A stretch of 32,000 nt of DNA from Desulfobulbus propionicus DSM 2032 (GCF_000186885.1 NC_014972.1:2280001-2312000), one strand, 5' to 3'. Shown: positions 5,778 through 27,894, numbered from the stretch's first letter. A program made the numbers and translations. The notes: a model not told the origin generated them from the sequence alone.

Positions 5778-6773
5778 TTAGAGGTTGTGCACTTCAAGAT
5801 AGACCAGGGTCTGGTTGAGCAACTGGTAGGCAATCTCGCCAAAGGTGATGGGGCCGACAAAGGGATCGGTTCGGTATCCCTGCAACCCGGAGTAGAGATA
5901 GTTGAGAATGCAGTTGCAGGAAAAGACAATGGTGCGGCCGCCGGGGTTGAGCGTGCGCAGCTGCCTGTTGAAGGTGGCTTCATAGTCGGCGACCGCCCTG
6001 GCGTGCCTGTAGTGGATGCCGGCAAACACTGGCGCATAAAATTCGACCTTGCCGTCGGGCTCGACGTTTTGAAAGCTGGTATTGATCAAGGCGCCGTAAT
6101 AATCGGCCACCAACGGCAGTTTGGTGTCGAGTTCGTTGCGAAGGATATACTGAGCGAAATTTTCCCTGACCCCATTGACCAGTACATCGGTGCAGGAAAA
6201 GCCATCGTTGGGAAAGATAAAGGTGTCCCCTTCCCCCTGCTCAAAGATATTGAGGATACCCACGTCCACGGTTTTATCGGCAGGCAGGGTCACATGCATG
6301 ACCACCGCCTCCTGCGCATGGGCCGTGCCCGAGAGGCCGTTGAACACCTTGGGCGTTGCCGTGCCCATCTCAACGAGATGCACGCCCGCCACCCAGCCGA
6401 CCAACGGCCGGCTGCCAAAATCCTGGTAATGGGGGGCGTTGAGGGCAAACGACGCGTGCACGGAGCTGGCTGCCGGCAGAATAATGAAGCTGAAGTCGCG
6501 TCCTTCGTTTTGGGTATAGATCGTGCCGAGCCGGTGCCGGTCATACACTTCGATGGCCGCCGACGCTGCGACCGGGGTCAGGTCGGTGACGAACAGCTGC
6601 TCACGGGAAACGATCCCACCCTGATCCGAGGTGATGAAATAGGGGATCGTACCACCGATCCATCGCCCCTTGGGTAACTGGCGCATCAGCTGCTCCTCGC
6701 CGGCGAGCAGCAGGGTCCGTCCTGCGGTGATCAGCGGTTCGACCTCGGCGACAGTGAACATATTCTGATGCAT
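5778..6773 (-). CDS. uncharacterised protein, FIST-like sensory-domain architecture (tentative)
   Basis: 331 aa and soluble. The C-terminal block FVGPITFGEIAYQLLNQTLVYLEV resembles the FIST_C ending (GEI....hNqT). SD AGGAG lies 7 nt upstream. The upstream small ORF stops 8 nt before this start. Confidence 0.5.
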   Translation of the reverse strand: MHQNMFTVAEVEPLITAGRTLLLAGEEQLMRQLPKGRWIGGTIPYFITSDQGGIVSREQLFVTDLTPVAASAAIEVYDRHRLGTIYTQNEGRDFSFIILPAASSVHASFALNAPHYQDFGSRPLVGWVAGVHLVEMGTATPKVFNGLSGTAHAQEAVVMHVTLPADKTVDVGILNIFEQGEGDTFIFPNDGFSCTDVLVNGVRENFAQYILRNELDTKLPLVADYYGALINTSFQNVEPDGKVEFYAPVFAGIHYRHARAVADYEATFNRQLRTLNPGGRTIVFSCNCILNYLYSGLQGYRTDPFVGPITFGEIAYQLLNQTLVYLEVHNL

Positions 6774-6781
6774 GGCGGCTC

Positions 6782-7021
6782 CTACCCGAAAATGGTTTGA
6801 ATGTCTTCCTGCACGGACGGACTGGTTGCATTCTTTGCATAGATGGCATGCAATTGCTCCACCGCATGCTCGATATTATCCGGAGTAGGCGCCGTGCCGA
6901 CCGACCGCATCAGCCGGCCAAGGAGAATTTTGGCGCCAAGCGATTTGAGGACGAATCGTTTCCGGCCGGTGACAATGTCGGCCCAAAGCGGATTGTTTTT
7001 CGGGGGAACAGGAATACGCAT
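6782..7021 (-). CDS. small hypothetical protein (79 aa), apparently co-operonic with the FIST-like gene
   Basis: Internal ATG at 7021 with GGAGG upstream. The longer track ORF starts with GTG at 7093 and has a poor SD. No family recognised. Confidence 0.4.
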   Translation of the reverse strand: MRIPVPPKNNPLWADIVTGRKRFVLKSLGAKILLGRLMRSVGTAPTPDNIEHAVEQLHAIYAKNATSPSVQEDIQTIFG

Positions 7022-7629
7022 CGTCGATGGCCTCCAGAGCACGATCCAAGGGACCCAGATTACTCCATCACGCTTCGCGGTCAGGCATAACACACCTTAT
7101 ATGGAACACGAATGTACATGGTATTGCCCCTTGGCACAAGATGAAGAAAAAAAGGATGTCACCGGTGACCCGAAACGCTATGAAGTACCTGCCAGATATG
7201 GCACTTTCTTGATAGGATGCAATTGCAGCAAAAGAAGAGTCAATATGCCCCGTACTCGATGAGAATATGGGTCAAAAGAACTCGAACTGATTTTCTTTCT
7301 TGGTTGGTTTTTGGTATCATTGCTTCTGACAGAGTTTTTTCCCTTTGTTATATATTGGGAAAAAAGAGTCATTTATACCCAACGGTTTCTGTTCGCCGTG
7401 CCGTCCGCCCCTCCGACAAAAGGTTATCGGCATGAAAAATGCATTGGATTCCGCAGGTTGCGAGGAACGATGTAAGAACCGTCCACGCTCCCACTGCTTT
7501 CCGGGGAAATCAGTGGTCCCTGAAACCCAAGCCAACCCACGCCCCGACAACAGCCGCCTCAGCAATGGGCTGGGATTCGCCTCACTTTTCAACATCATCG
7601 ATCGCGCGTATTCACGCGGAACTGGATTC

Positions 7630-8778
7630 ATGGATATCACCAAATTTGCCATCCCCGAAATCATCTTTGGCCGGGGAAGTCTCAACTATGCCGGACAATG
7701 TGCCTTGCGCCTCGGCGCCAAAAAAGTGTTCCTGGTCAGCGACGAAGGGATCGAGGAGGTCGGATGGCTGCAACGCCTGATGGACGTTCTGGAAAAGGAG
7801 GGCATCAAGTGGGTGTACTACCCCGGCGTGACCTCGAATCCGCGTGACTTTCAGGTGGAGCAGGGAGCGCAGCTCTATTCCAAGAACGGCACCGATGTGA
7901 TCATCGCCATTGGCGGCGGTAGCGCCATGGACACGGCCAAGGGCATTGCCATCATCGCCAGCAACGGCGGCCGGATACGGGATTACGAGGGCGCCAACCG
8001 GGTGCAGCGGCCGCTGCCGCCGATGATGCTGATCACCACCACGGCCGGCAGCGGCTCGGATATCAGCCAGTTCTGCATCATCACCGACATGAAGCGCGGG
8101 GTCAAAATGTCCATCATCACCCGGACTCTGGTGCCCAACATCTCCATTGTCGATCCGCTGATCCTGCGCACCAAGACCGAATCGCTGATCATCCAGTCGG
8201 CGGTCGATGCGCTGGCCCACGCCATCGAGGCCTACATGTCGCGCATTGCCTCGCCGTTCACCGAAATTCACTCGCTTCGGGCCATTGACCTGATCCTGGC
8301 CAACCTGCAACGCGCGGTGGCCACTCGTTCGCTCGATTCCCTGGAGCAGCTGAGCATTGCCTCGGTGTCCGCTTCCATGGCCTTTTCCAATGCCGGACTC
8401 GGCGCCGAACACGCCCTGGCCCACGCCCTGGGCGGCCATTTCGACATGCGCCACGGCATTGTCCATCCGATCCTGCTGACCAGTGTCATGCGCTTCAACA
8501 TGGGCATCAACCCCCAGCGCATGGCCGATATCGGCCGATTGATCCTCAAGCGCCAGGTCGGATCGGATGAGGATACCGCCTTGGCCGGCATTGAGAAACT
8601 CGAGGAATTTTTTGCCTCGTTCGACGTTGCCCTGCGGCTGAGCCAATTGATTCCGGAAAGTGAACGGCATCATCTTGAACCGCTGTGTAAGATGGCGGTC
8701 CATGATGCCTGCAACCTGACCAACCCCCGGCCTGCCACCTGGGAAGAATTTTACCGAATCTGCGAGGAGGTGTGGTGA
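7630..8778 (+). CDS. iron-containing (group III) alcohol dehydrogenase
   Basis: Fe-ADH blocks: IIFGRGSL, GGGSAMDTAKG, AVDALAHAIEAY, HALAHALGGHFDMRHG. The start at MDITKF (ATG 7630) fits family N-termini. The frame stays open upstream to 7345 (possible GTG at 7513, ATG at 7432), so the start is uncertain. Confidence 0.85.
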   Translation: MDITKFAIPEIIFGRGSLNYAGQCALRLGAKKVFLVSDEGIEEVGWLQRLMDVLEKEGIKWVYYPGVTSNPRDFQVEQGAQLYSKNGTDVIIAIGGGSAMDTAKGIAIIASNGGRIRDYEGANRVQRPLPPMMLITTTAGSGSDISQFCIITDMKRGVKMSIITRTLVPNISIVDPLILRTKTESLIIQSAVDALAHAIEAYMSRIASPFTEIHSLRAIDLILANLQRAVATRSLDSLEQLSIASVSASMAFSNAGLGAEHALAHALGGHFDMRHGIVHPILLTSVMRFNMGINPQRMADIGRLILKRQVGSDEDTALAGIEKLEEFFASFDVALRLSQLIPESERHHLEPLCKMAVHDACNLTNPRPATWEEFYRICEEVW

Positions 8779-10001
8779 TGCCCCACTACACCACCCTTGA
8801 GGACCTGGTCGGCATCGAGCACTGCAAGCTCGGTTTTTACCAGGAATTGCAGCAAAAGGTCGAGCAGCTCAAGGGCTCCAATCTGGAATTGGAGAAAAAA
8901 CGAAAAGAAATTCAGGCGTTGCTTGACGGTATTACCGATTTGATGGTGGTTTTGGCCGAAGACCTCAGCATTCAGCGGGTCAATCATGTGTTCACCGATT
9001 GGTTTCCCGGCATCGACCCCATCGGTCGCTTCTGCTACGAGATCTTTCGCGGCCAGCAAGGCCGGTGCGAGGACTGTCCGGCCTTGCACGCCCTGGACCG
9101 CGATGAAATCGTCAAGGATCTGTGCATCTACAAGGTCAACGACGATTTCAAGCATTACGAAATCATCGCCTCGCCGCTGAAAACCAGCCTCACCGGCGAA
9201 CGTCAGGTGCTGCTGTTCAAGCGGGATGTGACCCTGGAAAAAGAATTCCAGGCCCAGTTTTATCAGGCGGAAAAAATGGCCACCGTGGGAGCACTGGCCG
9301 CCGGCGTGGCCCACGAGATCAACAATCCCCTGACCGCCATCAACGGTTTTGCCCAAGGACTCAAACGTAGAATCAGCCGCTTGCAGGGCAAGATCGACGA
9401 CGACCTGTTCTGCGATTTCAAGGAATACACCGAAACCATCATCAAGGAATGCTTACGCTGTCGCGACATTGTCCAAACCCTGCTGACCTTCAGCCGGCCC
9501 ACGGCTTCCAGTCGCGGCCATGTGAATATCAACCAATGCGTCACCGATACCCTGTTCATTCTCAAGCATCACTTCAAGGAGCAACACGACCTGACGGTCA
9601 AGACCGAGTTGCAGGAAGACCTGCCGGCGATCCTTGGTGACGAATCCCAACTCAAGCAGGTGATCATCAACCTGCTGACCAACGCCCTGGATGCCACCAG
9701 CAACGGCGGCCTCATTCAGATCAAAACCTATAGCGACGAGACCGCCGGGGTGACGCTGGTGATTGAAGATTCCGGCTGCGGCATCCCCCTGGAACTCCAG
9801 GACAAACTGTTTGAGCCGTTTTTCACCACCAAACCGGTGGGCAAGGGCATCGGCATCGGACTCTCCACCTGTTATTCCATTGTCAAAAATCATAACGGCG
9901 AAATCAATGTCACCAGTGTCGTGGGCACCGGGTCGGCATTTCGGGTTTCTCTTCCAGGTATCAACGAAGAATGGACAAAGAAAGATACTCCATCCTGGTA
10001 G
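8778..10001 (+). CDS. cytoplasmic PAS-domain sensor histidine kinase (HisKA + HATPase_c)
   Basis: No TM segments. Coiled-coil and PAS region are followed by the H-box AAGVAHEINNPLTAINGF, the N-box LLTNALDA, the G1 box EDSGCGIP and the G2 box GKGIGIGLS. ATG 8778 overlaps the ADH stop (TGATG) and follows SD GAGGAGG. Confidence 0.9.
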   Translation: MPHYTTLEDLVGIEHCKLGFYQELQQKVEQLKGSNLELEKKRKEIQALLDGITDLMVVLAEDLSIQRVNHVFTDWFPGIDPIGRFCYEIFRGQQGRCEDCPALHALDRDEIVKDLCIYKVNDDFKHYEIIASPLKTSLTGERQVLLFKRDVTLEKEFQAQFYQAEKMATVGALAAGVAHEINNPLTAINGFAQGLKRRISRLQGKIDDDLFCDFKEYTETIIKECLRCRDIVQTLLTFSRPTASSRGHVNINQCVTDTLFILKHHFKEQHDLTVKTELQEDLPAILGDESQLKQVIINLLTNALDATSNGGLIQIKTYSDETAGVTLVIEDSGCGIPLELQDKLFEPFFTTKPVGKGIGIGLSTCYSIVKNHNGEINVTSVVGTGSAFRVSLPGINEEWTKKDTPSW

Positions 10002-11308
10002 TCGACGACGAAGAGTCGATCAGACGGCTGCTGCAGAAGGAATTGGCCAACAGCCGCCGCGAGATCCTGACCGCGGCCGATGGTGCCGAGGCCCTGGCCA
10101 TGATCCGCAACCACTGGTTTGACGTCATCATCATGGACCTATGGCTGCCCGATGTGTCCGATTTGGAGCTGTTGATCAAGATTCGGGAATCGATCCCCCA
10201 CATCGAGGTGATCATGATCACCGGTCACGGCGATGTCGATATCGCGGTGGAGGCGATGAAACTCGGGGCCTGCGATTTCATTCGCAAGCCGTTCAACCTC
10301 GACCGGCTCGATTTGATTGTGGAAAAGGCCCATCAGCGGGTTTTGCTGTCGCGGGAAAACGCTATGCTCCGCCACAGCACCGGCCAGGCACAGAATCAGG
10401 TGCGGTTCATCGGCAATTCCCAGGCCATCCGCGACATCCAGTTTCTGATCGACAAGGTCGCCCCGGCCAAGATTCCGGTACTGATCACCGGTGAATCGGG
10501 TGCCGGCAAGGATGTGGTCGCCCGGCTGATCCACCAGCGGTCCCCCTTGGCCGCCAATCCGATGATCGTCAAGAACTGCGCCACCCTGCAAAAGGAGCTG
10601 GCGCGCAGCGAGCTTTTCGGCCACATCAAGGGGTCGTTCACCGGAGCCAACGAATCGCGGGAGGGGTTGCTCTCCTTTGCCCACGACAGCACCCTGTTTC
10701 TCGATGAAATCGGCGAACTGCCGCTGGAAGTCCAGGCCTCGCTCCTGCGGGTCCTGGAAACCGGCACCTACCGCCGGGTGGGGGAAAAGGAGGAACGCAA
10801 AGTCAACATCCGTTTTCTGTTCGCCACCAACCGCCATCTGGCAGACGAGGTGGAAAAGGAACGGTTCAACGAGGCCTTCTACCACCGCATCAACGCCTTC
10901 AGCATCGAGATCCCCTCGCTCAGGCATCGCAAGGAAGATCTGCCGCTGCTGGTCGACTATTTCCTGACCACCCTCAGCCCGGACAACACCACCTACCATA
11001 TCGTTGAACGGGCCAAGGCCTGCATTCTGCGTTACAACTGGCCGGGGAACATCAGGGAACTGCGCAACGTGATCGAACGGTCGATCATTCTCGCGGAAAA
11101 TGGGATTATCACCGAACGCTGTCTGCCACGCGAACTGGTGGAATCTTCGGAAAGCAGCGGCGCCGCTCTGACCCTGGAGTCGGTGGAGCGGGAGCACATC
11201 CTCAAAATGCTCGATTTCTACGGCGGCAACCGGCAAAAAACCGCCGACACCCTGGGCATCAGTCGCAAAACGCTCTATCGCAAGCTGACCCAGTACGCCA
11301 TCGAGTAA
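9971..11308 (+). CDS. sigma-54-dependent response regulator (NtrC family: REC + AAA+ + Fis-type HTH)
   Basis: REC domain (ILVVDDEES, IIMDLWLPD). Walker A GESGAGKD. GAFTGA-type loop GSFTGA. Walker B FLDEIGEL. The C-terminal HTH matches QKTADTLGISRKTLYRKL. The start overlaps the kinase gene by 31 nt. Confidence 0.92.
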   Translation: MDKERYSILVVDDEESIRRLLQKELANSRREILTAADGAEALAMIRNHWFDVIIMDLWLPDVSDLELLIKIRESIPHIEVIMITGHGDVDIAVEAMKLGACDFIRKPFNLDRLDLIVEKAHQRVLLSRENAMLRHSTGQAQNQVRFIGNSQAIRDIQFLIDKVAPAKIPVLITGESGAGKDVVARLIHQRSPLAANPMIVKNCATLQKELARSELFGHIKGSFTGANESREGLLSFAHDSTLFLDEIGELPLEVQASLLRVLETGTYRRVGEKEERKVNIRFLFATNRHLADEVEKERFNEAFYHRINAFSIEIPSLRHRKEDLPLLVDYFLTTLSPDNTTYHIVERAKACILRYNWPGNIRELRNVIERSIILAENGIITERCLPRELVESSESSGAALTLESVEREHILKMLDFYGGNRQKTADTLGISRKTLYRKLTQYAIE

Positions 11309-11367
11309 CGACAGGATGGCCGGAGAGGAAAACGGGCGGCCGCCGCCGAGAGCGGATCAAGCGGTTT

Positions 11368-12480
11368 TCACGGCCGCACCAGCGCCCTGAAAAGGAAATC
11401 ATTGCCCAGCGGCTGGAGCGCCACATCCGCCAACCTGGGGGCCTGATCGCGCCTTGCAAGACTATAGCCGCTGACAAGTGGCGTTCCCTGATCGCCGACG
11501 ATGAAGGGGGCATAAAAGAGCAGGAGCTCGTCAACCAGCCGCTGGCCATACATGGCGCCGTGGATGCCGGCACCGCCCTCGACCAGCACGGAGGTCAGGT
11601 TCCGCGCCCCGAGCAAGCGAAGCATGGCGGGCAAATCCACTCGGCCATCCGCGCCAAGCGCCAGGCGAAGCACCCGCGCGCCAGCACGGACCAACTGTTC
11701 CTCGCGGTCGCTGGATGCCTCGGAGCCGCACACCACCCAGGTTTCCGCCGTTGACCGTTGGTGCAACATCCTGGCCTGAGGGGGCAGCCGCAAACAGGAA
11801 TCGAGCACGACGCGCACAGGATCACGGGTATCGGCTACACCTTCCAGCCGGGTGGTCAGGCTGGGGTCATCGATGATCGCTGTTTCCACCCCAATTAAAA
11901 TCGCATCGGTCTGATTGCGCAGTCGATGCACAAACCGCCACGATTCCTCGCCGGTCAGCGCCGCGCCTTGTCTGGATCGGAAGGTGATCTTGCCGTCGAG
12001 GCTTAATCCGGCCTTCATCATCACCCACGGCAAACCAGTGGTGCTGTGCTTGATGAAAGGATAATTCAACGCCCGGCAGGGCTGCTCAAGCACTCCGCTC
12101 ACGACCTCAAGGCCGCGCTGCCGCAGATAGGCGGCCCCCCCACCAGCCACCCGGGGGTTGGGATCAGCCATGCCGATGACTACCATGGCTATACCGGCAG
12201 CGAGAATGGCCTCGGTGCAGGGGGGAGTACGACCAGTGTGATTACAGGGCTCCAGGGTGACATAGATGGTTGCGCCTCTCGCTTGGGGACCAGCATCGGC
12301 AAGGGCATGGACTTCGGCGTGCGGCGTGCCGGCTCGATGATGATACCCCCGGCCGACCACTTTCCCGTCCTTGACCACCACCGCTCCTACCGCCGGATTG
12401 GGTGAGGTGCGGCCCAGGCCCTTCCGCGCCTCGGCCAGGGCCAGTTCCATGTACCACTCATGCCCATGCGCCATTGCCAT
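11368..12480 (-). CDS. ribD: bifunctional riboflavin biosynthesis deaminase/reductase RibD
   Basis: Deaminase motifs: PNPAVGAVVV, HAEVHAL, TLEPCNHTGRTPPC. The C-terminal reductase domain is present (LVEGGAGIHGA). Confidence 0.92.
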   Translation of the reverse strand: MAMAHGHEWYMELALAEARKGLGRTSPNPAVGAVVVKDGKVVGRGYHHRAGTPHAEVHALADAGPQARGATIYVTLEPCNHTGRTPPCTEAILAAGIAMVVIGMADPNPRVAGGGAAYLRQRGLEVVSGVLEQPCRALNYPFIKHSTTGLPWVMMKAGLSLDGKITFRSRQGAALTGEESWRFVHRLRNQTDAILIGVETAIIDDPSLTTRLEGVADTRDPVRVVLDSCLRLPPQARMLHQRSTAETWVVCGSEASSDREEQLVRAGARVLRLALGADGRVDLPAMLRLLGARNLTSVLVEGGAGIHGAMYGQRLVDELLLFYAPFIVGDQGTPLVSGYSLARRDQAPRLADVALQPLGNDFLFRALVRP

Positions 12481-13512: not shown

Positions 13513-14751
13513 TTAAGCGTAACGCCGAAAGATGACCACGCCGTTGGTACCGCCAAAGCCAAAAGAGTTGGACATGGCGGTTTCAAAGCGGGTTTCCCGT
13601 GCCGTCAATGGCACATAATCGAGATCGCAGTCCGGATCAGGATTGTGCAGGTTGGCGGTCGGGGGAATGATGCCATGGTGCAGGGCGAGGACGGTGAAAG
13701 CCGCCTCGATACCGCCCGCCGCCCCCAGCATGTGGCCGGTCATTGACTTGGTGGAACTGACCGCCAGTTGATGGGCATGGGCTCCAAAAACGGTTTTGAT
13801 GGCCAGGGTCTCGCACTTGTCGTTGAGCGGAGTGGAGGTCCCATGGGCGTTGATATAGTCGATGTCTTCGGGGTTCAGGCGGGCATCCCGCAGGGCAGCT
13901 GCCATGCACCGAGCCGCTCCCTCGCCATTTTCAGGCGGAGCGGCGATGTGATAGGCATCACTGCTCTGGCCATAGCCGATGATCTCGGCATAGATGGTCG
14001 CGCCCCGTCGTTTGGCGGCTTCCAGCTCCTCAAACACCATCATCCCCGCGCCTTCGGAGATGACAAAGCCATCGCGGTCCCGGTCAAAAGGCCGCGAAGC
14101 GGTGGTCGGATCGTCGTTGCGGGTCGACAGGGCCTTCATGGCACTGAATCCGCCAACGGCAAGGGGGCAGATGACCGATTCCGTCCCGCCGGTGATGGCC
14201 ACGTCGCAATCGCCATAGGCAATGTGACGGAAGGCCTCGCCGACCGCATGGGTGCCGGCGGCACAAGCGGTGGTTTGGGTCAGATTGGGCCCCTTGCAGC
14301 CGATGCGCATGGAAATATGCCCGGAAGGCATATTGGGAATGACCCTGGGAATAAAGAACGGAGTGATCTTGCGTGGCCCCTTGTTCATCATAACCCCGTG
14401 GTATTCCTCGATGGTGGGCAGACCGCCCATACCGCAGCCAGTAATCACCCCGACCCGATCGACATTTTCCTCGTTGATCGACAGGCCGCTGTTTTTCCAG
14501 GCAATGTCCGCAGCAGCCACCGCATATTGCACAAAGGCATCGAGATTTTTTGCCTGTTTTTTTTCAAACCACACCTCAGGATCAAAATCCTTGACCTCGG
14601 CGGCTATCTGCGAGGCCTGATCAGAGGCATCGAAGCGGGTGATCGGTCCGATCCCGCTCTGCCCGTTGATCAGCGCGTTCCACGTCTGCTCGGTACCGAT
14701 ACCGAGCGGCGTGATCAAGCCAATTCCTGTTACAACGACCCGTCGTTTCAC
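13513..14751 (-). CDS. fabF: 3-oxoacyl-ACP synthase II
   Basis: KAS II blocks: [15 protein letters not shown], active-site [30 protein letters not shown] chose the GTG start at 14751, preceded by GGAGCGGGAGAG. The track ORF runs to 14847 and would overlap acpP. Confidence 0.92.
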
Positions 14752-14767
14752 GCTCTCCCGCTCCGTA

Positions 14768-15001
14768 TCAGCCTTGAATCTTGGCCACGAAATCGATGGC
14801 ATTCTGCACGGTGACGATCTTCTCGGCCTCTTCGTCGGGGATTTCAACGTCGAATTCCTCTTCCATGGCCATGATCAGTTCGACCAGATCCAGGGAATCG
14901 GCTCCGAGGTCATCGACAAAGGATGCGCCCGGAACAACTTTGTCACGATCAACACTGAGTTGCTCGACGATGATATCAATCATTTTATCTTCAACGGCCA
15001 T
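14768..15001 (-). CDS. acpP: acyl carrier protein
   Basis: [19 protein letters not shown] carries the phosphopantetheine Ser (DSLD). ATG 15001 is preceded by GAGGAG. Confidence 0.95.
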
Positions 15002-15080
15002 TGTTATTCTCCTCAAAATTGTCTTGTTGTTGTTTTGTTAAAAACGATGCTCGAATATGTAGATACTCGGGCATTCCTTG

Positions 15081-15830
15081 TCAATGTCCCATATACATTC
15101 CGCCATTGACATGCAGGGTCTGACCAGTAATGTAGTTACTGTCAGGCGAGGCCAGAAAGCCCACCGAGGCGGCAACATCCTCCGGCGTTCCCAAGGTTCC
15201 CATGGGAATCTGGGCCTTGAGCGCTTCCTGAACATCTTCGGTGAGGCCATCGGTCATGTCGGTGACGATATATCCGGGAGCCACGCAATTGACGGTGATG
15301 TTCCGCCCCGCCAACTCCCTCGCCATGGATTTGGTCAGTCCCGCCAGGCCAGCCTTGGCCGCGCCGTAGTTGACCTGCCCGCTGTTGCCGACAAATCCGA
15401 CCACCGACGACACATTGATGATTCGTCCCCACCGTTTTTTCATCATGGCGCGCATCACTGCCTTACTGCAGAGAAACGCCCCTTTCAGATTGGTATCCAA
15501 CACGCTGTCCCAGTCGTCTTCCTTCATGCGTGCCATCAAGCCATCGCGGGTAATGCCCGCATTGTTGACCAGGATATCGATCTGGCCATGTGTCGCGATA
15601 ATTTCCTTGATTTGTTCCTGAACCGCTTGCGCATCGGCCACATCAAATCGGACGGTAAAGCCCTTGCCGCCCACGGCCTCGACCTGCCGGAGGGTTTCTT
15701 CGGCCGCCGCCGGATTCGCAACGTAATTGATGCCGACCGTGGCCCCCATGGCGGCGAGTTTCAGGCAAATGGCTCGACCGATCCCGCGGCTGCCGCCGGT
15801 CACGAGGGCAATCATCTTTTCCAGTATCAT
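15081..15830 (-). CDS. fabG: 3-oxoacyl-ACP reductase
   Basis: SDR motifs: TGGSRGIGRA, NNAGI, YGAAKAG. Typical FabG C-terminus GQTLHVNGGMYM. The start ATG overlaps the etfA stop (ATGA). Confidence 0.9.
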   Translation of the reverse strand: MILEKMIALVTGGSRGIGRAICLKLAAMGATVGINYVANPAAAEETLRQVEAVGGKGFTVRFDVADAQAVQEQIKEIIATHGQIDILVNNAGITRDGLMARMKEDDWDSVLDTNLKGAFLCSKAVMRAMMKKRWGRIINVSSVVGFVGNSGQVNYGAAKAGLAGLTKSMARELAGRNITVNCVAPGYIVTDMTDGLTEDVQEALKAQIPMGTLGTPEDVAASVGFLASPDSNYITGQTLHVNGGMYMGH

Positions 15831-17017
15831 TTCTTCATCTCCTGCAACCGCTGAATCAAACGCGGCACCACTTCATACAGATCACCGACCACCCCATAGG
15901 TGGCTATATCAAAAATGGGTGCACTCTTGTCTTTGTTGATCGCCACCACGATCTCTGCCGATTGCATGCCCACGGCGTGCTGCACAGCCCCGGAAATACC
16001 GCAGGCAATGTAGAGCTTGGGGCTGACCGTCTTACCAGTCTGCCCCACTTGATGGGGATAGGGGATCCAACCAGCATCCACCGCGGCCCTGGAAGCGGCG
16101 ACGGCGCCTCCCAGTTCGTTCGCCAGTTCACGGATCAGGGCAAAGCCCTTGGCCGAATCGAGTCCGCGTCCGCCAGCCACCAGCGCTTCGACCTCCTGAA
16201 TATTGACCTGATCATCGGTGTTGATCACTGTCTCGAGCACTTCAATCTTCGACTGGAGTAACCGCTCGGGAATTTGCATCACGACCACCTCCCCGCGACG
16301 CGTTGGGTCGGGCTCGGCAGGTGCCATCACCTTGGGCCGCACCGTGGCCATCTGTGGCCGAGTGTGGGGGCACTCAATGGTTGCCATGATATTGCCGCCA
16401 AAGGAGGGCCGGGTCTGCAGCAACATGCCGTCGGATTCCCTGATTTCCAGCCGAGTGCAATCGGCGGTGAGTCCCGCATCGATGGCGTTCGCCACATAGG
16501 GGATGACTGAACGGCCGATGGCGGTCGCTCCGGCGAGCACCACTTCGGGCTTTTGCTCCCGGATCACCTGCTCCAGAATACCGGCGTAAACATCTTCGCG
16601 AAACTGTTCCAACAGCGGATGTTCGGCAAGAAACACCCGGTCTGCGCCGGCAGCTATCAGATCCTGGGCCAGCGAGGCGACCGCGCCTCCGGGAAGCACG
16701 GCACTAAGCGTGGTTCCGCGCTGCTCGGCAAGTTTCCGGCCAATGCCGAGCAACTCATAGCTGACCTGCGCCACTTTGCCATGACGATATTCAGCAAACA
16801 CCAAAATGCCCGAATAGTCGTTGATGTCGGCCCGAACCCGCTTCTCCGCAGTTTCAATCCTCAATGCCCCGACCGGACAGTTTTCAACACAAGCCCCGCA
16901 CAGTGTGCAGGATTCATTGACCACGGCACAGTCGACCTCGACGCTGATCGCTCCAAAGGCGCAACTTGTTTCACAGATGCCGCAGGCAGTGCATTTCTCG
17001 CTATCGATAATCAGCAT
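15827..17017 (-). CDS. etfA: electron transfer flavoprotein alpha subunit with N-terminal 2x[4Fe-4S] ferredoxin domain
   Basis: The N-terminus has two CxxCxxCxxxC(P) motifs (CTACGICETSC, CTLCGACVENCP). The rest is EtfA-like: VAGGRGL, AVDAGW, QVGQTGKTVSPKLYIACGISGAVQH. I chose ATG 17017 because the track ORF to 17206 would overlap etfB. Confidence 0.88.
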   Translation of the reverse strand: MLIIDSEKCTACGICETSCAFGAISVEVDCAVVNESCTLCGACVENCPVGALRIETAEKRVRADINDYSGILVFAEYRHGKVAQVSYELLGIGRKLAEQRGTTLSAVLPGGAVASLAQDLIAAGADRVFLAEHPLLEQFREDVYAGILEQVIREQKPEVVLAGATAIGRSVIPYVANAIDAGLTADCTRLEIRESDGMLLQTRPSFGGNIMATIECPHTRPQMATVRPKVMAPAEPDPTRRGEVVVMQIPERLLQSKIEVLETVINTDDQVNIQEVEALVAGGRGLDSAKGFALIRELANELGGAVAASRAAVDAGWIPYPHQVGQTGKTVSPKLYIACGISGAVQHAVGMQSAEIVVAINKDKSAPIFDIATYGVVGDLYEVVPRLIQRLQEMKK

Positions 17018-17054
17018 GGGAACAATCCGGTTGAAATCACGGGGTGAAAGACGA

Positions 17055-17834
17055 TCACAGATGCGCCTTGAGGCACGCGACCAGTTGGTCGACCTGCTCT
17101 TCAACGCTTCCTGTAAAAATTTTGCGATTGCCCTTGGGCTCCGGCGCGAACACCCGGACCACCTGCGTCGGGGAACCGGCCAGACCGATGCACTGCGGGT
17201 CAGCACCGATATCTGAGGCGGAAAAGCACTTGATTGCCGCTTTTTTCGCTTTCATCTTCCCTTTCAGCGAAGCCACACGCGGCTGGTTGATATCCTTGAC
17301 CACGGTCATCAGGGCCGGCAGAGGCAGGCGGACGACATCAAACCCATCGTCCATCATCCGTTCCACTTCGATAACCCCATCGCCAACCGTACGCGTCTTC
17401 TGAATACAGGTAGCGTACGGCACCTGAAGTCGGTGGGCCAGTCCCGGCCCCACCTGGGCGGTATCGCCGTCGATCGCCTGCTTGCCGCAGAGAACGAGAT
17501 CAAAGGGGCCGATAGCCTCTATGGCCTTGGCCAAGGTGTAAGAGGTCGCCCACGTATCGGCCCCGGCAAAGGCACGGTCTGAAACCAGCACTCCTTCATC
17601 GGCTCCACAGGCGATGGCCTCACGCAACACCGCCTCGGCCTGCGGTGGCCCCATGGTCAAAACGGTTACGGCGCCTCCCAGCTGCTCCTTGATGGCCACC
17701 GCCTCTTCCAGGGCATGGCGATCATAAGGGTTCATGATCGACTCCACTCCCTCCCGGGCCAGGGTGTTGGTTTTCGGATCGAGACGAACGTCCTTGGCGT
17801 CCGGAACCTGTTTGACACAGACGATAATCTTCAT
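17055..17834 (-). CDS. etfB: electron transfer flavoprotein beta subunit
   Basis: MKIIVCVKQVPD, NPYDRHALEEA, CGKQAIDGDTAQVGP. Confidence 0.9.
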   Translation of the reverse strand: MKIIVCVKQVPDAKDVRLDPKTNTLAREGVESIMNPYDRHALEEAVAIKEQLGGAVTVLTMGPPQAEAVLREAIACGADEGVLVSDRAFAGADTWATSYTLAKAIEAIGPFDLVLCGKQAIDGDTAQVGPGLAHRLQVPYATCIQKTRTVGDGVIEVERMMDDGFDVVRLPLPALMTVVKDINQPRVASLKGKMKAKKAAIKCFSASDIGADPQCIGLAGSPTQVVRVFAPEPKGNRKIFTGSVEEQVDQLVACLKAHL

Positions 17835-17848
17835 GCGTTGTCCTGCTC

Positions 17849-18997
17849 TCAGGCGTATTCCTTGTTCAATTCCTGGCCAACGACATTGCGCTGAATCTGG
17901 TTGGTGCCTTCATAAATTTGAAGGATCTTGGCATCGCGCATCATCTTCTCCACCGGATACTCTTTCATGTAGCCGTATCCACCCAACACCTGAACCGCAT
18001 CGGTGGTGACTTTCATGGCCATATCGGTGGCAAAGACCTTGCACATGGACGAGACCTTGGACATATCCTTGGGATGCTTGTCGATGTGCTTTGCCGCCGC
18101 GTAAACCAACGATCGGGCTGCCTCCAGCTGGATGGCCATGTCGGCCAGGATGTGTTGCACGGCCTGAAAGGATATGATCGGTTTGGCGAACTGAACGCGT
18201 TGCTTGGCATAGGTGACCGCTTCATCAAGCGCTGCCTGGGCAAGGCCGACACCTAGGGAGGCGATCCCTGGCCGCGACATGTCCAGGGTCTTCATCACGG
18301 TGATGAACCCGGTTCCCCGCTTGCCTACCAGTCGATCCTTGGGAATACGGCAATCCTTGAGAATCAATTCCCGGGTGGCCGAGGCCCGGATGCCCATCTT
18401 GTCTTCCTTCTTGCCATAGGAAAATCCCGGATCCCCGTCCTCGACCACGAAAATGGAGGCTCCGCGCGCGCCCTTGTTGGGGTCGGTCAAGGCAACAATG
18501 GTGTAGATCTGTGATTCGCCGCCATTGGTGATCCATTGTTTGGTCCCGTTCAGCACCCACTCATCGCCATCCAAAACCGCGGTGGTGCGGATGCCGGAGG
18601 CATCACTGCCGGCATTGGCCTCGGTCAGACCAAAGGCGGCCCAGCGGGATCCGCTGGCGATATCGGGCATGTATTTCTGTTTCTGCTCTTCACTGCCGGC
18701 AATCAGCACCGGAAAGATGCCCAAAGCGCTGGCGGCAAAGCTGGTGGCCACACCAACGCATCCCCGGGCCAATTCTTCCAGGGCCAGGACAACCTCAAAA
18801 CAACCGCCGCCAAACCCGCCATATTCCTCGGGAACAAATATGCTGAACAGATCCGCCTTGGCGATATCCTTTAATATTTCGCGGGGAAACTGGTTTTTTT
18901 CATCAAGTTCGGCCCGAACCGGAATAATCTTTTCATTGGTGATTTCCCGGGCGGTATCAACGATCATCTGCTGCTGTTCAGTGAGAAAATAATCCAC
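17849..18997 (-). CDS. acyl-CoA dehydrogenase (short-chain/butyryl-CoA dehydrogenase-like)
   Basis: ACAD blocks: GLTEANAGSDASG, KQWITNGG, and the catalytic-base region ILQIYEGTNQIQR. GTG start at 18997 is preceded by AAGGAGAG and gives the family-typical N-terminus (V)DYFLTEQQQM. The track ORF to 19078 would overlap fabH. Confidence 0.88.
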   Translation of the reverse strand: MDYFLTEQQQMIVDTAREITNEKIIPVRAELDEKNQFPREILKDIAKADLFSIFVPEEYGGFGGGCFEVVLALEELARGCVGVATSFAASALGIFPVLIAGSEEQKQKYMPDIASGSRWAAFGLTEANAGSDASGIRTTAVLDGDEWVLNGTKQWITNGGESQIYTIVALTDPNKGARGASIFVVEDGDPGFSYGKKEDKMGIRASATRELILKDCRIPKDRLVGKRGTGFITVMKTLDMSRPGIASLGVGLAQAALDEAVTYAKQRVQFAKPIISFQAVQHILADMAIQLEAARSLVYAAAKHIDKHPKDMSKVSSMCKVFATDMAMKVTTDAVQVLGGYGYMKEYPVEKMMRDAKILQIYEGTNQIQRNVVGQELNKEYA

Positions 18998-19016: not shown

Positions 19017-19994
19017 TTACCAACGCATGAGCAGCGAACCCCAGGTGAGGCCGCCGCCAAAGGTACATAACAACACAATGTCTCCCCGCCTCAGCCGTCC
19101 TTCACGGTGCGCTTCGTCCAGCGCGATCGGGATGCTGGCGGCCGAGGTATTGCCGTACTTGCTTAAATTGATGAACACCTTCTCCTCCGCGATGCCCAAT
19201 CGGTCACGCAAATTGGTCAGGATGCGGATATTGGCCTGATGGGGAATCATGAGGTTGACGTCGTCGATGGTGAGGTCATGCTTACGCAACAGACTGGTAA
19301 CGGCATCCTCCATCATCCGAACAGCATGTTTGAAGATGTCGCTGCCGCTCATACGGATATGAGGCCCGTGCCATATGTCCGGCCGCAGATCCGGATTAAG
19401 GCTTTCCGGGCTGTCCATGCACAACAGGTTCCACAATTTGCCATCTGAATGCAAACTGCTGCCAAAAACTCCTCGACCGTCATGCGAGCCAGAAAGGACC
19501 ACCGCTCCCGCTCCGTCCCCAAAAAGAACACAGGTGTTGCGATCTTCCCAGTCCACCCGAGCGGACAGTGTTTCCGCACCGATCAGCAGGATTTTCATTT
19601 CCGGCCGATTCTGAATGTAATTGCTCGCCAGATCCAGACCATAGGTAAAACCGGCACAGGCGGCGTTGATGTCGTAGGCAAAGGCATTCACCGCCCCCAA
19701 TTCCGCCTGCACGAAACAGGCAGTGGACGGCATGATCATGTGCGGCGAAACGGTCGCGACAATAATCAGATCGAGCTCTTCGGCATCGATCCCGGTCACA
19801 GCGAGCGCCCGTCGTCCCGCCTTGGCGGCCAGCTGATAATTTTGTTCATTCTTTCCAGCAATATGCCGGTTTCGAATACCGGTCCTGGTCGTAATCCATT
19901 CATCGGAAGTATCCACCATCCGCTCAAGCTCGGCATTGGTGAGTTTCCGTTCGGGAAGACAGGAACCGGTTCCCAAGATAACTGCTCTATTCAT
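19017..19994 (-). CDS. fabH: 3-oxoacyl-ACP synthase III
   Basis: Catalytic-triad contexts NAACAGF, PHQANIRI and GNTSAASIP. I chose the start at MNRAVILGTG (ATG 19994). Confidence 0.92.
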   Translation of the reverse strand: MNRAVILGTGSCLPERKLTNAELERMVDTSDEWITTRTGIRNRHIAGKNEQNYQLAAKAGRRALAVTGIDAEELDLIIVATVSPHMIMPSTACFVQAELGAVNAFAYDINAACAGFTYGLDLASNYIQNRPEMKILLIGAETLSARVDWEDRNTCVLFGDGAGAVVLSGSHDGRGVFGSSLHSDGKLWNLLCMDSPESLNPDLRPDIWHGPHIRMSGSDIFKHAVRMMEDAVTSLLRKHDLTIDDVNLMIPHQANIRILTNLRDRLGIAEEKVFINLSKYGNTSAASIPIALDEAHREGRLRRGDIVLLCTFGGGLTWGSLLMRW

Positions 19995-20007
19995 GAAAAA
20001 CCTGCTT

Positions 20008-21021
20008 TCAGGCGGCGAATTCGCCAAGGGCTTCAACGATCGCGTCGTTGATGCGATTGTGGACCATGCTGGCGGCGACTTCAATCGCATTGCGGATGGC
20101 CACGGCATTGGAGGCGCCGTGACAGATGATGCCGGTGCCGTCTATACCGAGCAGTGGCGCGCCGCCATATTCCGCGTAGTCCACCTGTTTTTTAAATCCA
20201 GCGAAAGCCTCGCGGATAAGGAGATACCCAAGTTTGGCACGCCAAGTTTTCATGATTTCCCGCTTCAGCATCTGCATGGCCGCCTCGGCCAGGCCCTCGC
20301 TGATCTTCAGCGAAATATTGCCGACGAACCCATCACATACCACCACATCGACATCGCCGCGATACACGTCGCGTCCCTCGACATTGCCGATGAAGTGCAA
20401 GGGGCTTTTTTTGAGCAATTCATGAGTTTCCTTGACCAGCGCATTCCCTTTTCCGGTTTCCTCGCCATTACTGAGCAACCCGACCCGTGGCCGTTCATGC
20501 TTGAGCAGCAACCGAGAGCAGGATGAGGCCATGACAGCAAATTGATACAAATGCTGCGGTCGACAGTCAACATTCGCACCGATGTCCATCAGCATCACCG
20601 GTTTTTTCAATGTCGGGAAGAAACTGGCAATGCCCGGCCTGGATACACCGGGAAGCCGCCCCAGCTTTCGTACGGCCGCCGCCATGGTCGCGCCGGAATT
20701 GCCGGCGGAAACAAGCGCGTCCGCCTCGCCGTTCTTTACCAGATCGAAACCGACCATAATGGTCGCCTCTTTCTTCTTGCGCACGGCATCAACCGGGGAA
20801 TCATCCATGGTGATCACCTCGGCGGCGTGATGGACACTGATTCGATCCAGTGCATCGCCTTGGCCGCGGGCATGTTCAGCGAGTTGTTGTTCCAAAAGAT
20901 GTTGGGGGCCAACCAAGACGACGCGGAGATCTTTCCTGCCGCCAACGGCGGCGAGTGCCCCTTGAATCGCCATCTCTGACCCCCGGTCGCCACCCATGGC
21001 GTCAAGGGCTATTCTCACCAC
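20008..21021 (-). CDS. plsX: phosphate acyltransferase PlsX
   Basis: MVRIALDAMGGD, SAGNSGA, VVCDGFVGN. Confidence 0.93.
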   Translation of the reverse strand: MVRIALDAMGGDRGSEMAIQGALAAVGGRKDLRVVLVGPQHLLEQQLAEHARGQGDALDRISVHHAAEVITMDDSPVDAVRKKKEATIMVGFDLVKNGEADALVSAGNSGATMAAAVRKLGRLPGVSRPGIASFFPTLKKPVMLMDIGANVDCRPQHLYQFAVMASSCSRLLLKHERPRVGLLSNGEETGKGNALVKETHELLKKSPLHFIGNVEGRDVYRGDVDVVVCDGFVGNISLKISEGLAEAAMQMLKREIMKTWRAKLGYLLIREAFAGFKKQVDYAEYGGAPLLGIDGTGIICHGASNAVAIRNAIEVAASMVHNRINDAIVEALGEFAA

Positions 21022-21029: not shown

Positions 21030-21218
21030 TTAGCTTATCTCTTCCTCAAGACGGATCACACTCCGCCCCTTGTACATGCCACAACCGCCGCATAACTGAT
21101 GACGCATCTTCGCTTCGCCACACTCGGGGCATTGCCCGACGCTGGGTTTAGTCAACGCATCGTGCGCCCGGCGCATTCTTGTTCGCGAATGGGAATGTCT
21201 ACGTTTCGGTAAAGCCAT
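21030..21218 (-). CDS. rpmF: 50S ribosomal protein L32
   Basis: MALPKRRHSHSRTRMRRAH plus the zinc ribbon CPECGE...CGGCG. ATG 21218 is preceded by GGAGGA. Confidence 0.93.
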   Translation of the reverse strand: MALPKRRHSHSRTRMRRAHDALTKPSVGQCPECGEAKMRHQLCGGCGMYKGRSVIRLEEEIS

Positions 21219-21299
21219 AATGTCCTCCATTGCGTCCACAAACATTGAACGGTGCCGAATCGCCCATTCTGTCGTCTTTGGACAACTTATTGATAAAAT

Positions 21300-21815
21300 T
21301 TATTTTTTCAACCGAGCAAGTCCCGCAAAAGGAGACCGATTATCCTCGGCGGCACAGCTGCAGTGCATCCCATTCAGGTTAGCGCCGCAACGCGGGCAAA
21401 GCCCCTTACAGGTTTCGGCGCAGAGATTTTTCATCGGGAGCGCCAGATATATCTGCTGTCGAAACACATCGTCAAGGTCAATGACAGGTTCTTCAAGCAC
21501 CTCGATGTCTAAATCTGTTGTTGTACATTCGACTTCCTTCAAACGCCACGAGGCTTCGCTCTCTACCTCGAACAGCAACTGGAAATCGGTATCCACCTGC
21601 ACATCGTAATCTCCAAGGCAGCGATCGCATACCAATGTCACCACGGCTTGAAGATACCCCTGCATGCCAACCTTTGCTTCGCCTTCGCGACGCAGTTCGC
21701 AATGGGCCTGCAGAGGTCCCTTGATGGCAAAATCCCGCTGCGCGACAAGACTTTCTATGACTGTCAACTCGAAACGACTGCCATACGGGGAGATTTCATT
21801 GAACCGGACCTGCAC
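21300..21815 (-). CDS. yceD: YceD/DUF177 family protein (large-subunit rRNA accumulation protein)
   Basis: Position upstream of rpmF. CDRCL...CxxxCKGLCPRCGANLN cysteine motifs typical of DUF177. Confidence 0.85.
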   Translation of the reverse strand: MQVRFNEISPYGSRFELTVIESLVAQRDFAIKGPLQAHCELRREGEAKVGMQGYLQAVVTLVCDRCLGDYDVQVDTDFQLLFEVESEASWRLKEVECTTTDLDIEVLEEPVIDLDDVFRQQIYLALPMKNLCAETCKGLCPRCGANLNGMHCSCAAEDNRSPFAGLARLKK

Positions 21816-21966: not shown

Positions 21967-22635
21967 TCAGGATTGCTTCTGCTGCTGTTCCAATTGGCTG
22001 ATTTTATTTTCTATCTGTTTAACCAAACCCGGATATCCGTCCTTGAGCAGGATCTCCTTGAACTGCTCCATGTAGTTGCGCACGAGGCTCACCCCTTCGA
22101 CAACCACATCGTAAGCCATCCATTGCGTCCCGCGAAGAATAAGAATATACGAGATGGGAATGGATTTATTCGCATCCACCAGCAACGTCTGCACCTCGGC
22201 GCGATCCCCCTTGATCCGCTGTTGAGTGAACTCGACCTGTTGCCCGGTATACTCGTCGATTTTTCCCACGTAGGCATACTGCAAAAGCTCGGTGAACAAC
22301 TGTTCAAATTGTGCCTGCTCCTGTGTATTGAGCGAACGCCAATGCTGCCCGAGAACCCGCTTGCTCATTTCGCGAAAATCAAAGCGTTCACGTACGACAT
22401 TGATCACTCTTTGACTCTGCTCTTTTTTCGGAACCGTTTTCAGGGTGGGGTCGGCGAGTACATCGGTGACTTTCTGCAGGAAGGGACGAAATTGCTCTGT
22501 AGGATCGGGAGAGCTCGCGGCCGCCGCTTGTCCGAGGAAGGAGCCGAAAATGATTACGACAAGAACAAGCAGGCCGCTGAAAAAAAATTGGGTACCCTGC
22601 CGACGGCATCGTCGATCCAATATCATGAACCACAT
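21967..22635 (-). CDS. mlaC: phospholipid-binding periplasmic protein MlaC (Ttg2D family)
   Basis: Signal peptide. FDFREMSKRVLGQHW, WMAYDVVVEGVSLVRNYMEQF. Confidence 0.85.
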   Translation of the reverse strand: MWFMILDRRCRRQGTQFFFSGLLVLVVIIFGSFLGQAAAASSPDPTEQFRPFLQKVTDVLADPTLKTVPKKEQSQRVINVVRERFDFREMSKRVLGQHWRSLNTQEQAQFEQLFTELLQYAYVGKIDEYTGQQVEFTQQRIKGDRAEVQTLLVDANKSIPISYILILRGTQWMAYDVVVEGVSLVRNYMEQFKEILLKDGYPGLVKQIENKISQLEQQQKQS

Positions 22636-22650
22636 AGCGATAAACTGTTT

Positions 22651-23418
22651 TTATTTTGTCTGAGAATGATTGCGCGTTTTACTTCGCATCTGGAAGTAGC
22701 CGTTGCGAAAAGCTATATAGGGATCAAAGCTCAAGGATTTCAACTGGTCATATTCCCCAAGATGCAGCGAGGTGCGATTCACCGTATTAACGCCGGTAAG
22801 CGTGTACGGGCTCAATTCGTCATCGCTCCACGGATAATAGGAAGCCATGGCCAAGCTGTCAACCACGGTTCCGGTCAAATCGCGCACCGTGGACGGTCCC
22901 AGCAAGGGTGCGACCACATAGAAACCGTCGCCGATGCCCCAGGTGGCGAGCGTTTCCCCGAGCGTGGCGCTGATGGGCGGAATGGCAAATTCATGGGCCG
23001 CGGTATCCGCCAAGCCAAAGACACCGCAGATGGTGTTGAGCGCGAACCGGGATAAGACCAGACCGGAATCGCGAAACCGTCCTTGCAGCAGGCAGTTGAC
23101 GGAGCGCACCGGTTCACCGAGGTTGTAAAAAAAATTGCCGATGCATCCCCGAATATCGGCAGGCAGTACCTTGCTGTATCCTGTGGCCACAGGGTCCAAC
23201 ACCCATATGTAGAACTTGTCGTTCAACGTGAAGATCGCCCTATTCACCGGCTCGATCGGATCGGCAACTTGGGCAGTTTCTCCATTTGCATAGGCGTCAT
23301 CGCTGAGGAAGTCATTGGCGGCCGCATTGCCGCCCCCAATGAGGAAAGACACGCACAGCATAAGACAGCAGCGCAACAGCAACGCGAAGATAGGTTTTGG
23401 TTGCATAACGGGACTCAC
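22651..23418 (-). CDS. mlaA: outer-membrane lipoprotein MlaA/VacJ
   Basis: VacJ blocks: DPIEPVNRAIFTLND, FFYNLGEPV, GLVLSRFALNT, GETLATWG. Start is ambiguous: GTG at 23418 or ATG at 23406. Confidence 0.85.
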   Translation of the reverse strand: MSPVMQPKPIFALLLRCCLMLCVSFLIGGGNAAANDFLSDDAYANGETAQVADPIEPVNRAIFTLNDKFYIWVLDPVATGYSKVLPADIRGCIGNFFYNLGEPVRSVNCLLQGRFRDSGLVLSRFALNTICGVFGLADTAAHEFAIPPISATLGETLATWGIGDGFYVVAPLLGPSTVRDLTGTVVDSLAMASYYPWSDDELSPYTLTGVNTVNRTSLHLGEYDQLKSLSFDPYIAFRNGYFQMRSKTRNHSQTK

Positions 23419-26658: not shown

Positions 26659-27894
26659 TTAATTGTTGCCTTTGGCCGCTTGCTCAGCCCGCTTCTTGAA
26701 CTCCTTGAGAATGGACTGTTCCTTCTTGTTTTTGGCCAGGTAGCCGGGGGTGGTCTGCCAGAGCATCAGCGCTGCCAGGATGATGAGGATCCAGCCGAAG
26801 GCAAACTTGAACTGATCCAGGGTGATCATTTCCGTCAATTTCGGGCCGATGAAGCCGCCCAGCAACATGGCGGTGCCGATACCACAACCAAGCTTCCAAT
26901 TGATGAATTTGATCTTCGAGTAGTTATAAATACCGCTGCCCTGGGAAAAGAGCACGGTCGGGGTGACAGTACCGGCGACGATGGTATGGGGCAGGGCCGG
27001 AAACAACGCCAGCAGCAAGGGGTTCATGATGAAACCACCGCCCGCGCCCATGAGCACGCCGAAAATGGCCACCGCCAGGGAGAGGAAGAAGGGGTAGAAA
27101 ATATTGAGACTGGTGCCGGCGTTCTCCAGGTAGACATTGGGGAAGGCAATCTTGTTGTCAAAGGTTGCCACCTCGCTCTTGAGCGATTTGTCGACCACGG
27201 CGACGACCTTGTACTTGCCCGGAGCCAACCCTTCGCGAATCTTGATGTCCGCAGTGTAGGAACCGTCGGGCTTGACATCGATGGCGGCGGCCACCACCTT
27301 GTCAACGCTCTGGAAGCGGGCCTTGACCAGCTGCATGGAGCGTTTTTTATTCTCCTTCTCGTCCATCGTCGGCAACAGATCACCACGACTGCCGACGACG
27401 CTGGCCATGAGCGTCGACTGATAGCGCTCGATCTTGGTCTTGGCCGGAACGGTATAGGCGACATCCGCCCCCAAACTCTTGAGCAGTTCGGAATAACTCC
27501 ATTTCTTTCCTTTTGTCTTGGCCTCGTCGATCTTTGGCTGCAGTTCCTTGGGGGCAAAGATCTTGTAATAGGCCGGCATTTCTTCGGTTATGTAGAAGAT
27601 ATACGGCCGTTTGCCGGTTTCCTTATCGACCTCGCTGTCAAACCGGTTGGCGCGCACGGCATGATCCGCTGCCCAAACCTCGAGAAATACCGGCTTGCCA
27701 GCCGGGGCCTGGCCGCTCACCTTGATGGTGCCGCCATTGTTGACTTCGTTCTTATCGATGGCAATGGTTGGCGCGGCAATCACCGCCTCCGGCTGTGCGG
27801 CGGCGGTCACCTCCTCGCCAATCGCCACATTTCCCCCACAAAGCACCAACAGTGCCGTAAATAGCCATGGTACGAGTTTTGTTCTTTTGTTCAT
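26659..27894 (-). CDS. fusion protein: signal peptide + uncharacterised periplasmic domain of about 250 aa + TauE/SafE N-terminal half (about 4 TM)
   Basis: MNKRTKLVPWLFTALLVLCGGNVAIG signal sequence, then a hydrophilic Lys-rich domain. The TM region carries LMGAGGGFIMNPLLL (the TauE repeat signature). SD GAGGAG lies upstream. Confidence 0.75.
   Translation of the reverse strand: MNKRTKLVPWLFTALLVLCGGNVAIGEEVTAAAQPEAVIAAPTIAIDKNEVNNGGTIKVSGQAPAGKPVFLEVWAADHAVRANRFDSEVDKETGKRPYIFYITEEMPAYYKIFAPKELQPKIDEAKTKGKKWSYSELLKSLGADVAYTVPAKTKIERYQSTLMASVVGSRGDLLPTMDEKENKKRSMQLVKARFQSVDKVVAAAIDVKPDGSYTADIKIREGLAPGKYKVVAVVDKSLKSEVATFDNKIAFPNVYLENAGTSLNIFYPFFLSLAVAIFGVLMGAGGGFIMNPLLLALFPALPHTIVAGTVTPTVLFSQGSGIYNYSKIKFINWKLGCGIGTAMLLGGFIGPKLTEMITLDQFKFAFGWILIILAALMLWQTTPGYLAKNKKEQSILKEFKKRAEQAAKGNN

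Follow-up and report, generated by a model that had tools for sequence, protein, structure and literature searches.

Bcd-type acyl-CoA dehydrogenases (ACADs) act reductively in anaerobes. The closest described systems pair an ACAD with the EtfB and EtfA subunits of an electron transfer flavoprotein (Etf). CarCDE of Acetobacterium woodii is an electron-bifurcating caffeyl-CoA reductase, and its EtfA-type subunit carries two [4Fe-4S] motifs (PMC6085437). This complex (PDB 6FAH) is driven by NADH and couples enoyl-CoA reduction to flavin-based electron bifurcation. Bcd-EtfAB of Clostridioides difficile (PDB 5OL2) reduces crotonyl-CoA in fermentation, and AcrABC of Anaerotignum (Clostridium) propionicum performs NADH-dependent enoyl-CoA reduction with acryloyl-CoA as the substrate and propionate fermentation as the context. 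A 32,000-nucleotide stretch of the Desulfobulbus propionicus DSM 2032 genome (NC_014972.1:2280001-2312000; here called the window, with positions counted from its first letter) contains a related ACAD-etfB-etfA module inside the operon for type II fatty acid synthesis (FAS-II). We propose, with a probability of about 0.65, that this module is the dedicated enoyl-acyl carrier protein (ACP) reductase (ER) of FAS-II in Desulfobulbus and many other Desulfobacterota, where it would replace FabI and FabK. The assignment is made because the module occupies a slot that is also used by FabI and FabK, because it is mutually exclusive with both, and because no other phylum-wide ER was found.

The module and CarCDE have the same ACAD, EtfB and EtfA composition, and in both the EtfA-type subunit has a two-[4Fe-4S] domain. 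The Desulfobulbus ACAD is nearer to Bcd than to CarC and does not class as CarC-type. The setting also differs, with a fab operon of a sulfate reducer and a proposed enoyl-ACP substrate in place of an acetogen and caffeyl-CoA. The features in common with Bcd-EtfAB are a Bcd-type ACAD with a catalytic Glu and, probably, a bifurcating-type Etf and the conversion of a trans-2-enoyl to a saturated thioester. Unlike this fermentation complex, the module lies in a fab operon as a proposed ER replacement, and its EtfA has a ferredoxin domain that the C. difficile EtfA lacks. AcrABC is likewise an ACAD with EtfAB, and each of the module's three subunits has its best NCBIfam equivalog there, but the scores fall under the curated cutoffs. 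The step proposed for the module is the one catalyzed by FabI, FabK, FabL and FabV, and FabI and FabK are found in the same slot between fabH and fabD in other Desulfobacterota. The folds are unrelated: FabI, FabL and FabV are short-chain dehydrogenases/reductases (SDRs) or related proteins and FabK is an FMN-containing TIM barrel, whereas the module consists of an FAD-containing ACAD and an Etf relay. FabX of Helicobacter pylori (PMC8626469) is another unusual FAS-II redox enzyme that acts on acyl-ACP, but it is a nitronate monooxygenase (NMO)-family dehydrogenase/isomerase for unsaturated fatty acids with a fold unrelated to ACAD.

Open reading frames (ORFs) and their translations give the minus-strand gene order in the window as yceD-rpmF-plsX-fabH, followed by ACAD, etfB and a ferredoxin-fused etfA, and then fabG-acpP-fabF. 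The module and the two genes that flank it are as follows.

19017..20042, minus strand: fabH, beta-ketoacyl-ACP synthase III (TIGR00747, 402 bits, over the curated equivalog cutoff; PRK09352).
17849..18997, minus strand: ACAD of the Bcd/short-chain acyl-CoA dehydrogenase type, protein P0004 (Pfam ACAD N, M and C domains; Glu in IYEGT).
17055..17834, minus strand: etfB, Etf small subunit, protein P0001 (Pfam ETF).
15827..17017, minus strand: etfA, Etf large subunit, protein P0005 (Pfam ETF, ETF_alpha and two Fer4 domains).
15081..15830, minus strand: fabG, 3-oxoacyl-ACP reductase, protein P0003 (TIGR01830 equivalog, over the cutoff).

An earlier reading of this DNA, referred to as the original prediction, placed the three genes between fabH and fabG with spacers of 19, 14 and 37 nt and an ATGA overlap, and the sequence bears out each of these points. 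The 19-nt spacer separates the fabH stop codon (TAA, 19019-19017) from the GTG of the ACAD gene, 14 nt lie between ACAD and etfB, and 37 nt precede the ATG of etfA. In ATGA, the TGA stop of etfA overlaps the ATG start of fabG. The ACAD start is the GTG at 18997, preceded by an AAGGAG motif (19010-19005) and in agreement with the start in relatives. The longest ORF begins at a TTG at 19078, and this start was rejected because it would overlap fabH. A GTG at 17206 opens the longest ORF for etfA and was also rejected; the ATG at 17017 agrees with relatives. The fabH start codon is uncertain, with its ORF open to 20108. The prediction that fabD and an ER are missing holds within the window, where neither was found, but does not extend to the genome for fabD. 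A fabD gene, relocated from the operon, is present about 450 kb away at 2.75 Mb (2748839-2749783; L069:7836-8783, minus strand; TIGR00128 over the cutoff), adjoining ffh and near rimM/trmD-like genes.

The position of the module was compared with the fabH neighborhoods in a sample of 121 Desulfobacterota genomes and in Desulfobulbus relatives. All 24 Desulfobulbus relatives, and 6 other Desulfobulbales families, have ACAD and etfB directly after fabH. About 10 further Desulfobacterota families also show the complete fabH-ACAD-etfB-etfA-fabG order. Every full-identity ortholog locus examined (about 15 families) has the ACAD gene within a plsX-fabH-...-fabG-acpP-fabF cluster. Variants of this order were also found. 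Two genomes (G075 and G077) have fabH-ACAD-fabD-fabG. Where fabH lies outside the cluster, the order is plsX-ACAD-etfB-etfA-fabG-acpP-fabF in one genome (G057), plsX-ACAD-etfB-etfA-fabD-fabG-acpP-fabF in another (G086) and plsX-ACAD-fabD-fabG-acpP-fabF in three more (G041, G093 and G051). The slot between fabH and fabD holds FabI in one family (f22; genomes G045 and G089, loci L072 and L105), giving fabH-fabI-fabD-fabG, and FabK in genome G066 (L054), giving fabH-fabK-fabD-fabG. Further genomes have an empty fabH-fabD junction.

The distribution of the ACAD was then set against that of FabI and FabK. ACAD orthologs were called at 61% identity or more, with a clear gap to paralogs at 55% or less. 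A strong FabI call was a PRK06079 match of >250 bits, and a FabK call was at least 60% identity to an in-cluster FabK. Among the 121 phylum genomes, 55 have the ACAD ortholog, 14 have FabI and 5 have FabK (19 with FabI or FabK). No genome has both the ACAD and FabI or FabK, compared to 8.6 expected by chance, and the hypergeometric P = 2.5e-6 overstates the significance because related genomes are not independent. The overlap is zero at the family level too. ACAD carriers are without FabI and FabK, and therefore the ACAD very probably performs the last reduction of each elongation round.

The D. propionicus genome was searched for a conventional ER, as the original prediction had recommended, and no FabI, FabK or FabV was found. 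The best tblastn matches in this genome to true Desulfobacterota FabI are two SDRs with 31-32% identity, and the best match to FabK is 37% identical over a partial length. FabV (PF12241) was not found in the genome, and the control genomes likewise gave no signal. At 1.05 Mb (1050854-1051603; L067:7854-8606, plus strand), with a DUF362 protein on one side and metK on the other, lies a FabL-like SDR that scores above the NCBIfam cutoff for PRK08063 (FabL). It was rejected as a general ER; it occurs in only 5 of the 121 phylum genomes and is missing from most ACAD genomes, even another Desulfobulbus (G056). A FabI-like SDR at 3.06 Mb is 31% identical to true FabI, occurs in 10 of the 121 genomes and was rejected as well. 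Both SDRs are sporadic, and therefore neither can be the phylum-wide ER. The FabI-like SDR lies in a secondary lipid cluster (3050001-3070000; L066) beside ATP synthase genes and alaS. This cluster encodes a 3beta-hydroxysteroid dehydrogenase-type epimerase, an AMP-binding ligase, the FabI-like SDR, FabZ-like and FabG-like proteins, DUF6946, a CrtI-like amine oxidase and a ketosynthase, and is possibly a polyene, aryl-polyene or special-lipid pathway.

An NMO-family protein at 3.2 Mb (3205087-3206001; L068:7063-8040, minus strand) resembles FabK and was also rejected as an ER. It scores 185 bits against a cutoff of 453, has no match at 1e-40 to true in-cluster FabK and carries a FabX-like Cys motif. 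This C-terminal CxxxCxxxCxxxxC resembles the [4Fe-4S] subdomain found in FabX of H. pylori and is absent from the in-cluster FabK of genome G066. A FabX-type enzyme is more likely than an ER. Both features expected of an ER, a place in the fab-operon slot and the absence of other ERs, are thus seen for the ACAD-EtfB-EtfA module. A fitness study of Desulfovibrio vulgaris Hildenborough (DvH) gives the ER for biotin synthesis as unknown.

Several points weigh against the proposed ER role. About 47 of the 121 sampled genomes have no ACAD ortholog, FabI or FabK (for example G058, G061, G067, G076 and G050), and the fabH-fabD junction has no extra gene in genomes that lack any identified ER. The phylum may therefore hold another, unrecognized ER, and such an enzyme may also sit in ACAD genomes. 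Enzymes of the Bcd family are mostly short-chain (C3-C6), whereas an ER of FAS-II must take C4-C16 enoyl-ACPs. Bifurcation by the module is argued from similarity. Co-transcription with the fab genes is suggested by gene spacing and by metatranscriptome contigs; the contigs support it weakly because RNA libraries can contain DNA, and a contig that spans two genes is not proof of one transcript.

In the alternative that survives these comparisons best, the module would be a redox enzyme specific for CoA that belongs to beta-oxidation, reverse beta-oxidation or energy metabolism and is co-regulated with fab, and the true ER would have escaped recognition. The sampled genomes without FabI, FabK or the ACAD must have an ER of that kind, and the characterized Bcd and Car complexes work on CoA substrates. 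A CoA-specific enzyme would leave unexplained both the zero overlap with FabI and FabK in 121 genomes and the consistent occupation of the ER slot, and we regard it as unlikely. The third suggestion of the original prediction, a redox link between fatty acid synthesis and degradation, gained no specific support.

The ACAD contains all three Pfam Acyl-CoA_dh domains (N, M and C) and has the catalytic Glu in IYEGT near the C-terminus. Pfam detects ACAD domains only, and neither an SDR with its Tyr-Lys active site nor an FMN-containing NMO TIM barrel, which places the protein outside the FabI, FabK, FabL and FabV families. The closest database matches are Desulfobulbus proteins with 92-95% identity (D. 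propionicus, D. oligotrophicus, D. elongatus and D. rhabdoformis). The best PDB matches are the Bcd-type structures 5ol2, 8i4p and 7w0j at about 400 bits, and CarC (6fah_C) is lower at 319 bits. The top NCBIfam models for the three subunits are those of Acr, each under its curated cutoff: AcrC at 437 versus 640, AcrB at 240 versus 475 and AcrA at 346 versus 600. Similarity to the acyl-ACP dehydrogenase model MbtN is 71.8 bits against a cutoff of 700 and does not reach the equivalog level. The fab-associated ACADs form one clade in the gene tree (support 100/99), apart from the other ACADs of the genome, and the branching tracks taxonomy. A single, well-supported clade of this kind points to one ancient recruitment, probably followed by reshuffling of gene order.

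The etfA product begins with a two-[4Fe-4S] ferredoxin domain (residues ~3-61, window ~16835-17017) that contains two CxxCxxCxxxC motifs. Its best PDB match is CarE (6fah_A) over residues 5-394. The best match of EtfB is CarD (6fah_B), followed by the bifurcating Etfs 4kpu_B, 5ol2_B and 7qh2_B. After Car, the next-nearest Etfs are other bifurcating ones, including the C. difficile Bcd-Etf and the Etf of A. woodii lactate dehydrogenase, and the non-bifurcating human ETF ranks far below them. By sequence, EtfB and EtfA are therefore closest to the bifurcating Car/Bcd type (group 2), in which EtfB binds FAD in place of AMP. Four of the five genomes with the ACAD and no adjacent Etf encode a full-length ferredoxin-EtfA elsewhere.

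We infer the enoyl-ACP substrate, its chain-length range, the electron donor and bifurcation in the reaction that is proposed for the module. The location among fab genes suggests ACP substrates in place of a short-chain enoyl-CoA such as crotonyl-CoA. In each cycle, after FabG and FabZ have acted, the FAD of the ACAD would reduce trans-2-enoyl-ACP to acyl-ACP. A hydride from NADH would be transferred to the EtfB flavin, and electrons would then pass through the flavin in domain II of EtfA to the ACAD FAD. The EtfB flavin probably bifurcates, as judged by its likeness to the Bcd-EtfAB and CarCDE complexes. For each enoyl group reduced, one further electron pair would go to ferredoxin, possibly through the [4Fe-4S] domain of EtfA. 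A bifurcating ER with a ferredoxin-domain EtfA in much of the Desulfobacterota is a tentative extension of the proposal. An ER that does not bifurcate is a rather unlikely alternative. It would be either a plain NADH-dependent enzyme like Acr, in keeping with the AcrABC similarity, or an enzyme fed by reduced ferredoxin with the EtfA [4Fe-4S] domain as the electron entry point. The closeness of EtfB and EtfA to CarDE and the Bcd Etfs, which bifurcate, is one of sequence similarity only and argues against both forms. The first suggestion of the original prediction, a flavin- and Etf-based, possibly ferredoxin-coupled enoyl-thioester reductase serving FAS-II, is thus strengthened by the slot, the exclusion and the Car-type Etf; ACP specificity and bifurcation stay predictions.

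The second suggestion of the original prediction was an acyl-ACP dehydrogenase with a role in the anaerobic synthesis of unsaturated fatty acids; the double bonds it introduces would be trans-2. Desulfobulbus produces monounsaturated fatty acids, and acyl-ACP dehydrogenases such as MbtN and PigA belong to the ACAD family, although the NCBIfam matches of the module to them are weak. The module lies in the ER slot rather than a FabA slot, and it excludes FabI and FabK, not FabA. Bcd-type ACADs with a bifurcating Etf run in the reductive direction. The NMO-family protein (3.205 Mb) could make unsaturated fatty acids instead. H. pylori FabX is an NMO-family protein with a [4Fe-4S] subdomain and a role in unsaturated fatty acid synthesis (PMC8626469). 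The D. propionicus protein may be a FabX-type acyl-ACP dehydrogenase/isomerase with the same role, based on its Cys motif. The FabX mechanism could yield omega-6 monoenes, which are markers of Desulfobulbus. A dehydrogenase role is disfavored because the module replaces an ER and not FabA and because a FabX-like NMO protein exists, and we consider it very improbable. The least probable explanation is that the module supplies FabH with a short acyl-CoA primer for odd-chain or other starts (propionyl-CoA from acryloyl-CoA or butyryl-CoA from crotonyl-CoA), as the AcrC, AcrB and AcrA equivalogs (under cutoffs) and the ACAD-fabH adjacency in many genomes could suggest, but the ACAD keeps its place in clusters that are without fabH (G057, G086, G041, G093 and G051), the exclusion of FabI and FabK is left unexplained, and central metabolism normally provides primers.

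If the ER assignment is correct, a known reaction is performed by an enzyme family that had so far not been linked to it, and the module would be a fifth, unrelated ER class beside FabI, FabK, FabL and FabV. The original prediction held that no such role was established for a fab operon. A literature search on ACAD/Etf or electron-bifurcating enoyl-ACP reductases and on Desulfobacterota ERs found no earlier report of the arrangement or the role. The module would also be the first tie of flavin-based electron bifurcation to fatty acid synthesis. With bifurcation, every elongation round would reduce ferredoxin from NADH, and membrane lipid synthesis would be coupled to the supply of low-potential electrons, which bears on the NADH/ferredoxin balance in the lipid synthesis of anaerobes. 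Organisms that depend on the module would be insensitive to inhibitors that target FabI or FabK. The proposal would concern a large phylum of anaerobes whose sulfate reducers are important globally in sulfur and carbon cycling, and it bears on the lack of a recognizable ER in many Desulfobacterota. The Desulfobulbaceae include the cable bacteria. Enoyl reduction gives much of the hydrogen in lipids, and the proposal bears on what determines hydrogen-isotope ratios in the lipids of sulfate reducers. For Desulfovibrio, the hydride source of this reduction has been discussed as a factor that controls lipid 2H/1H (bioRxiv 10.1101/039792).

The original prediction also called the module very probably co-transcribed with the fatty acid synthesis genes. 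The short spacers, the translational overlap and RNA contigs make this plausible and fall short of proof. Metatranscriptome contigs from four independent studies (runs X1, X2, X3 and X5) cover the whole fabH-fabG stretch including both junctions, and near-identical copies of the Desulfobulbus operon occur in metatranscriptomes of activated sludge, freshwater sediment and bioreactor sludge. A promoter and terminator scan gave the same level as shuffled sequence. Ten terminator-like sites were found compared to about 9 expected in shuffles, and none is prominent at the module junctions.

The remaining genes of the operon are as follows.

13513..14847, minus strand: fabF, beta-ketoacyl-ACP synthase II (ORF; FabF match in the clusters of relatives).
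14768..15016, minus strand: acpP, acyl carrier protein (ORF and translation; homolog in the clusters of relatives).
20008..21021, minus strand: plsX (ORF; synteny, with ACAD directly 3' of plsX where the cluster of relatives is without fabH).
21030..21245, minus strand: rpmF (ORF).
21300..21815, minus strand: yceD (ORF).

Just past the fab cluster, mlaC and mlaA (outer-membrane lipid asymmetry) lie beside yceD at 21967-23418 on the minus strand. The regions of the window at 2777-12480 and 26659-31947 encode a malic enzyme, a DUF1848 protein, a sigma-54-dependent response regulator, RibD, a TauE exporter and two PAS/GAF histidine kinases.

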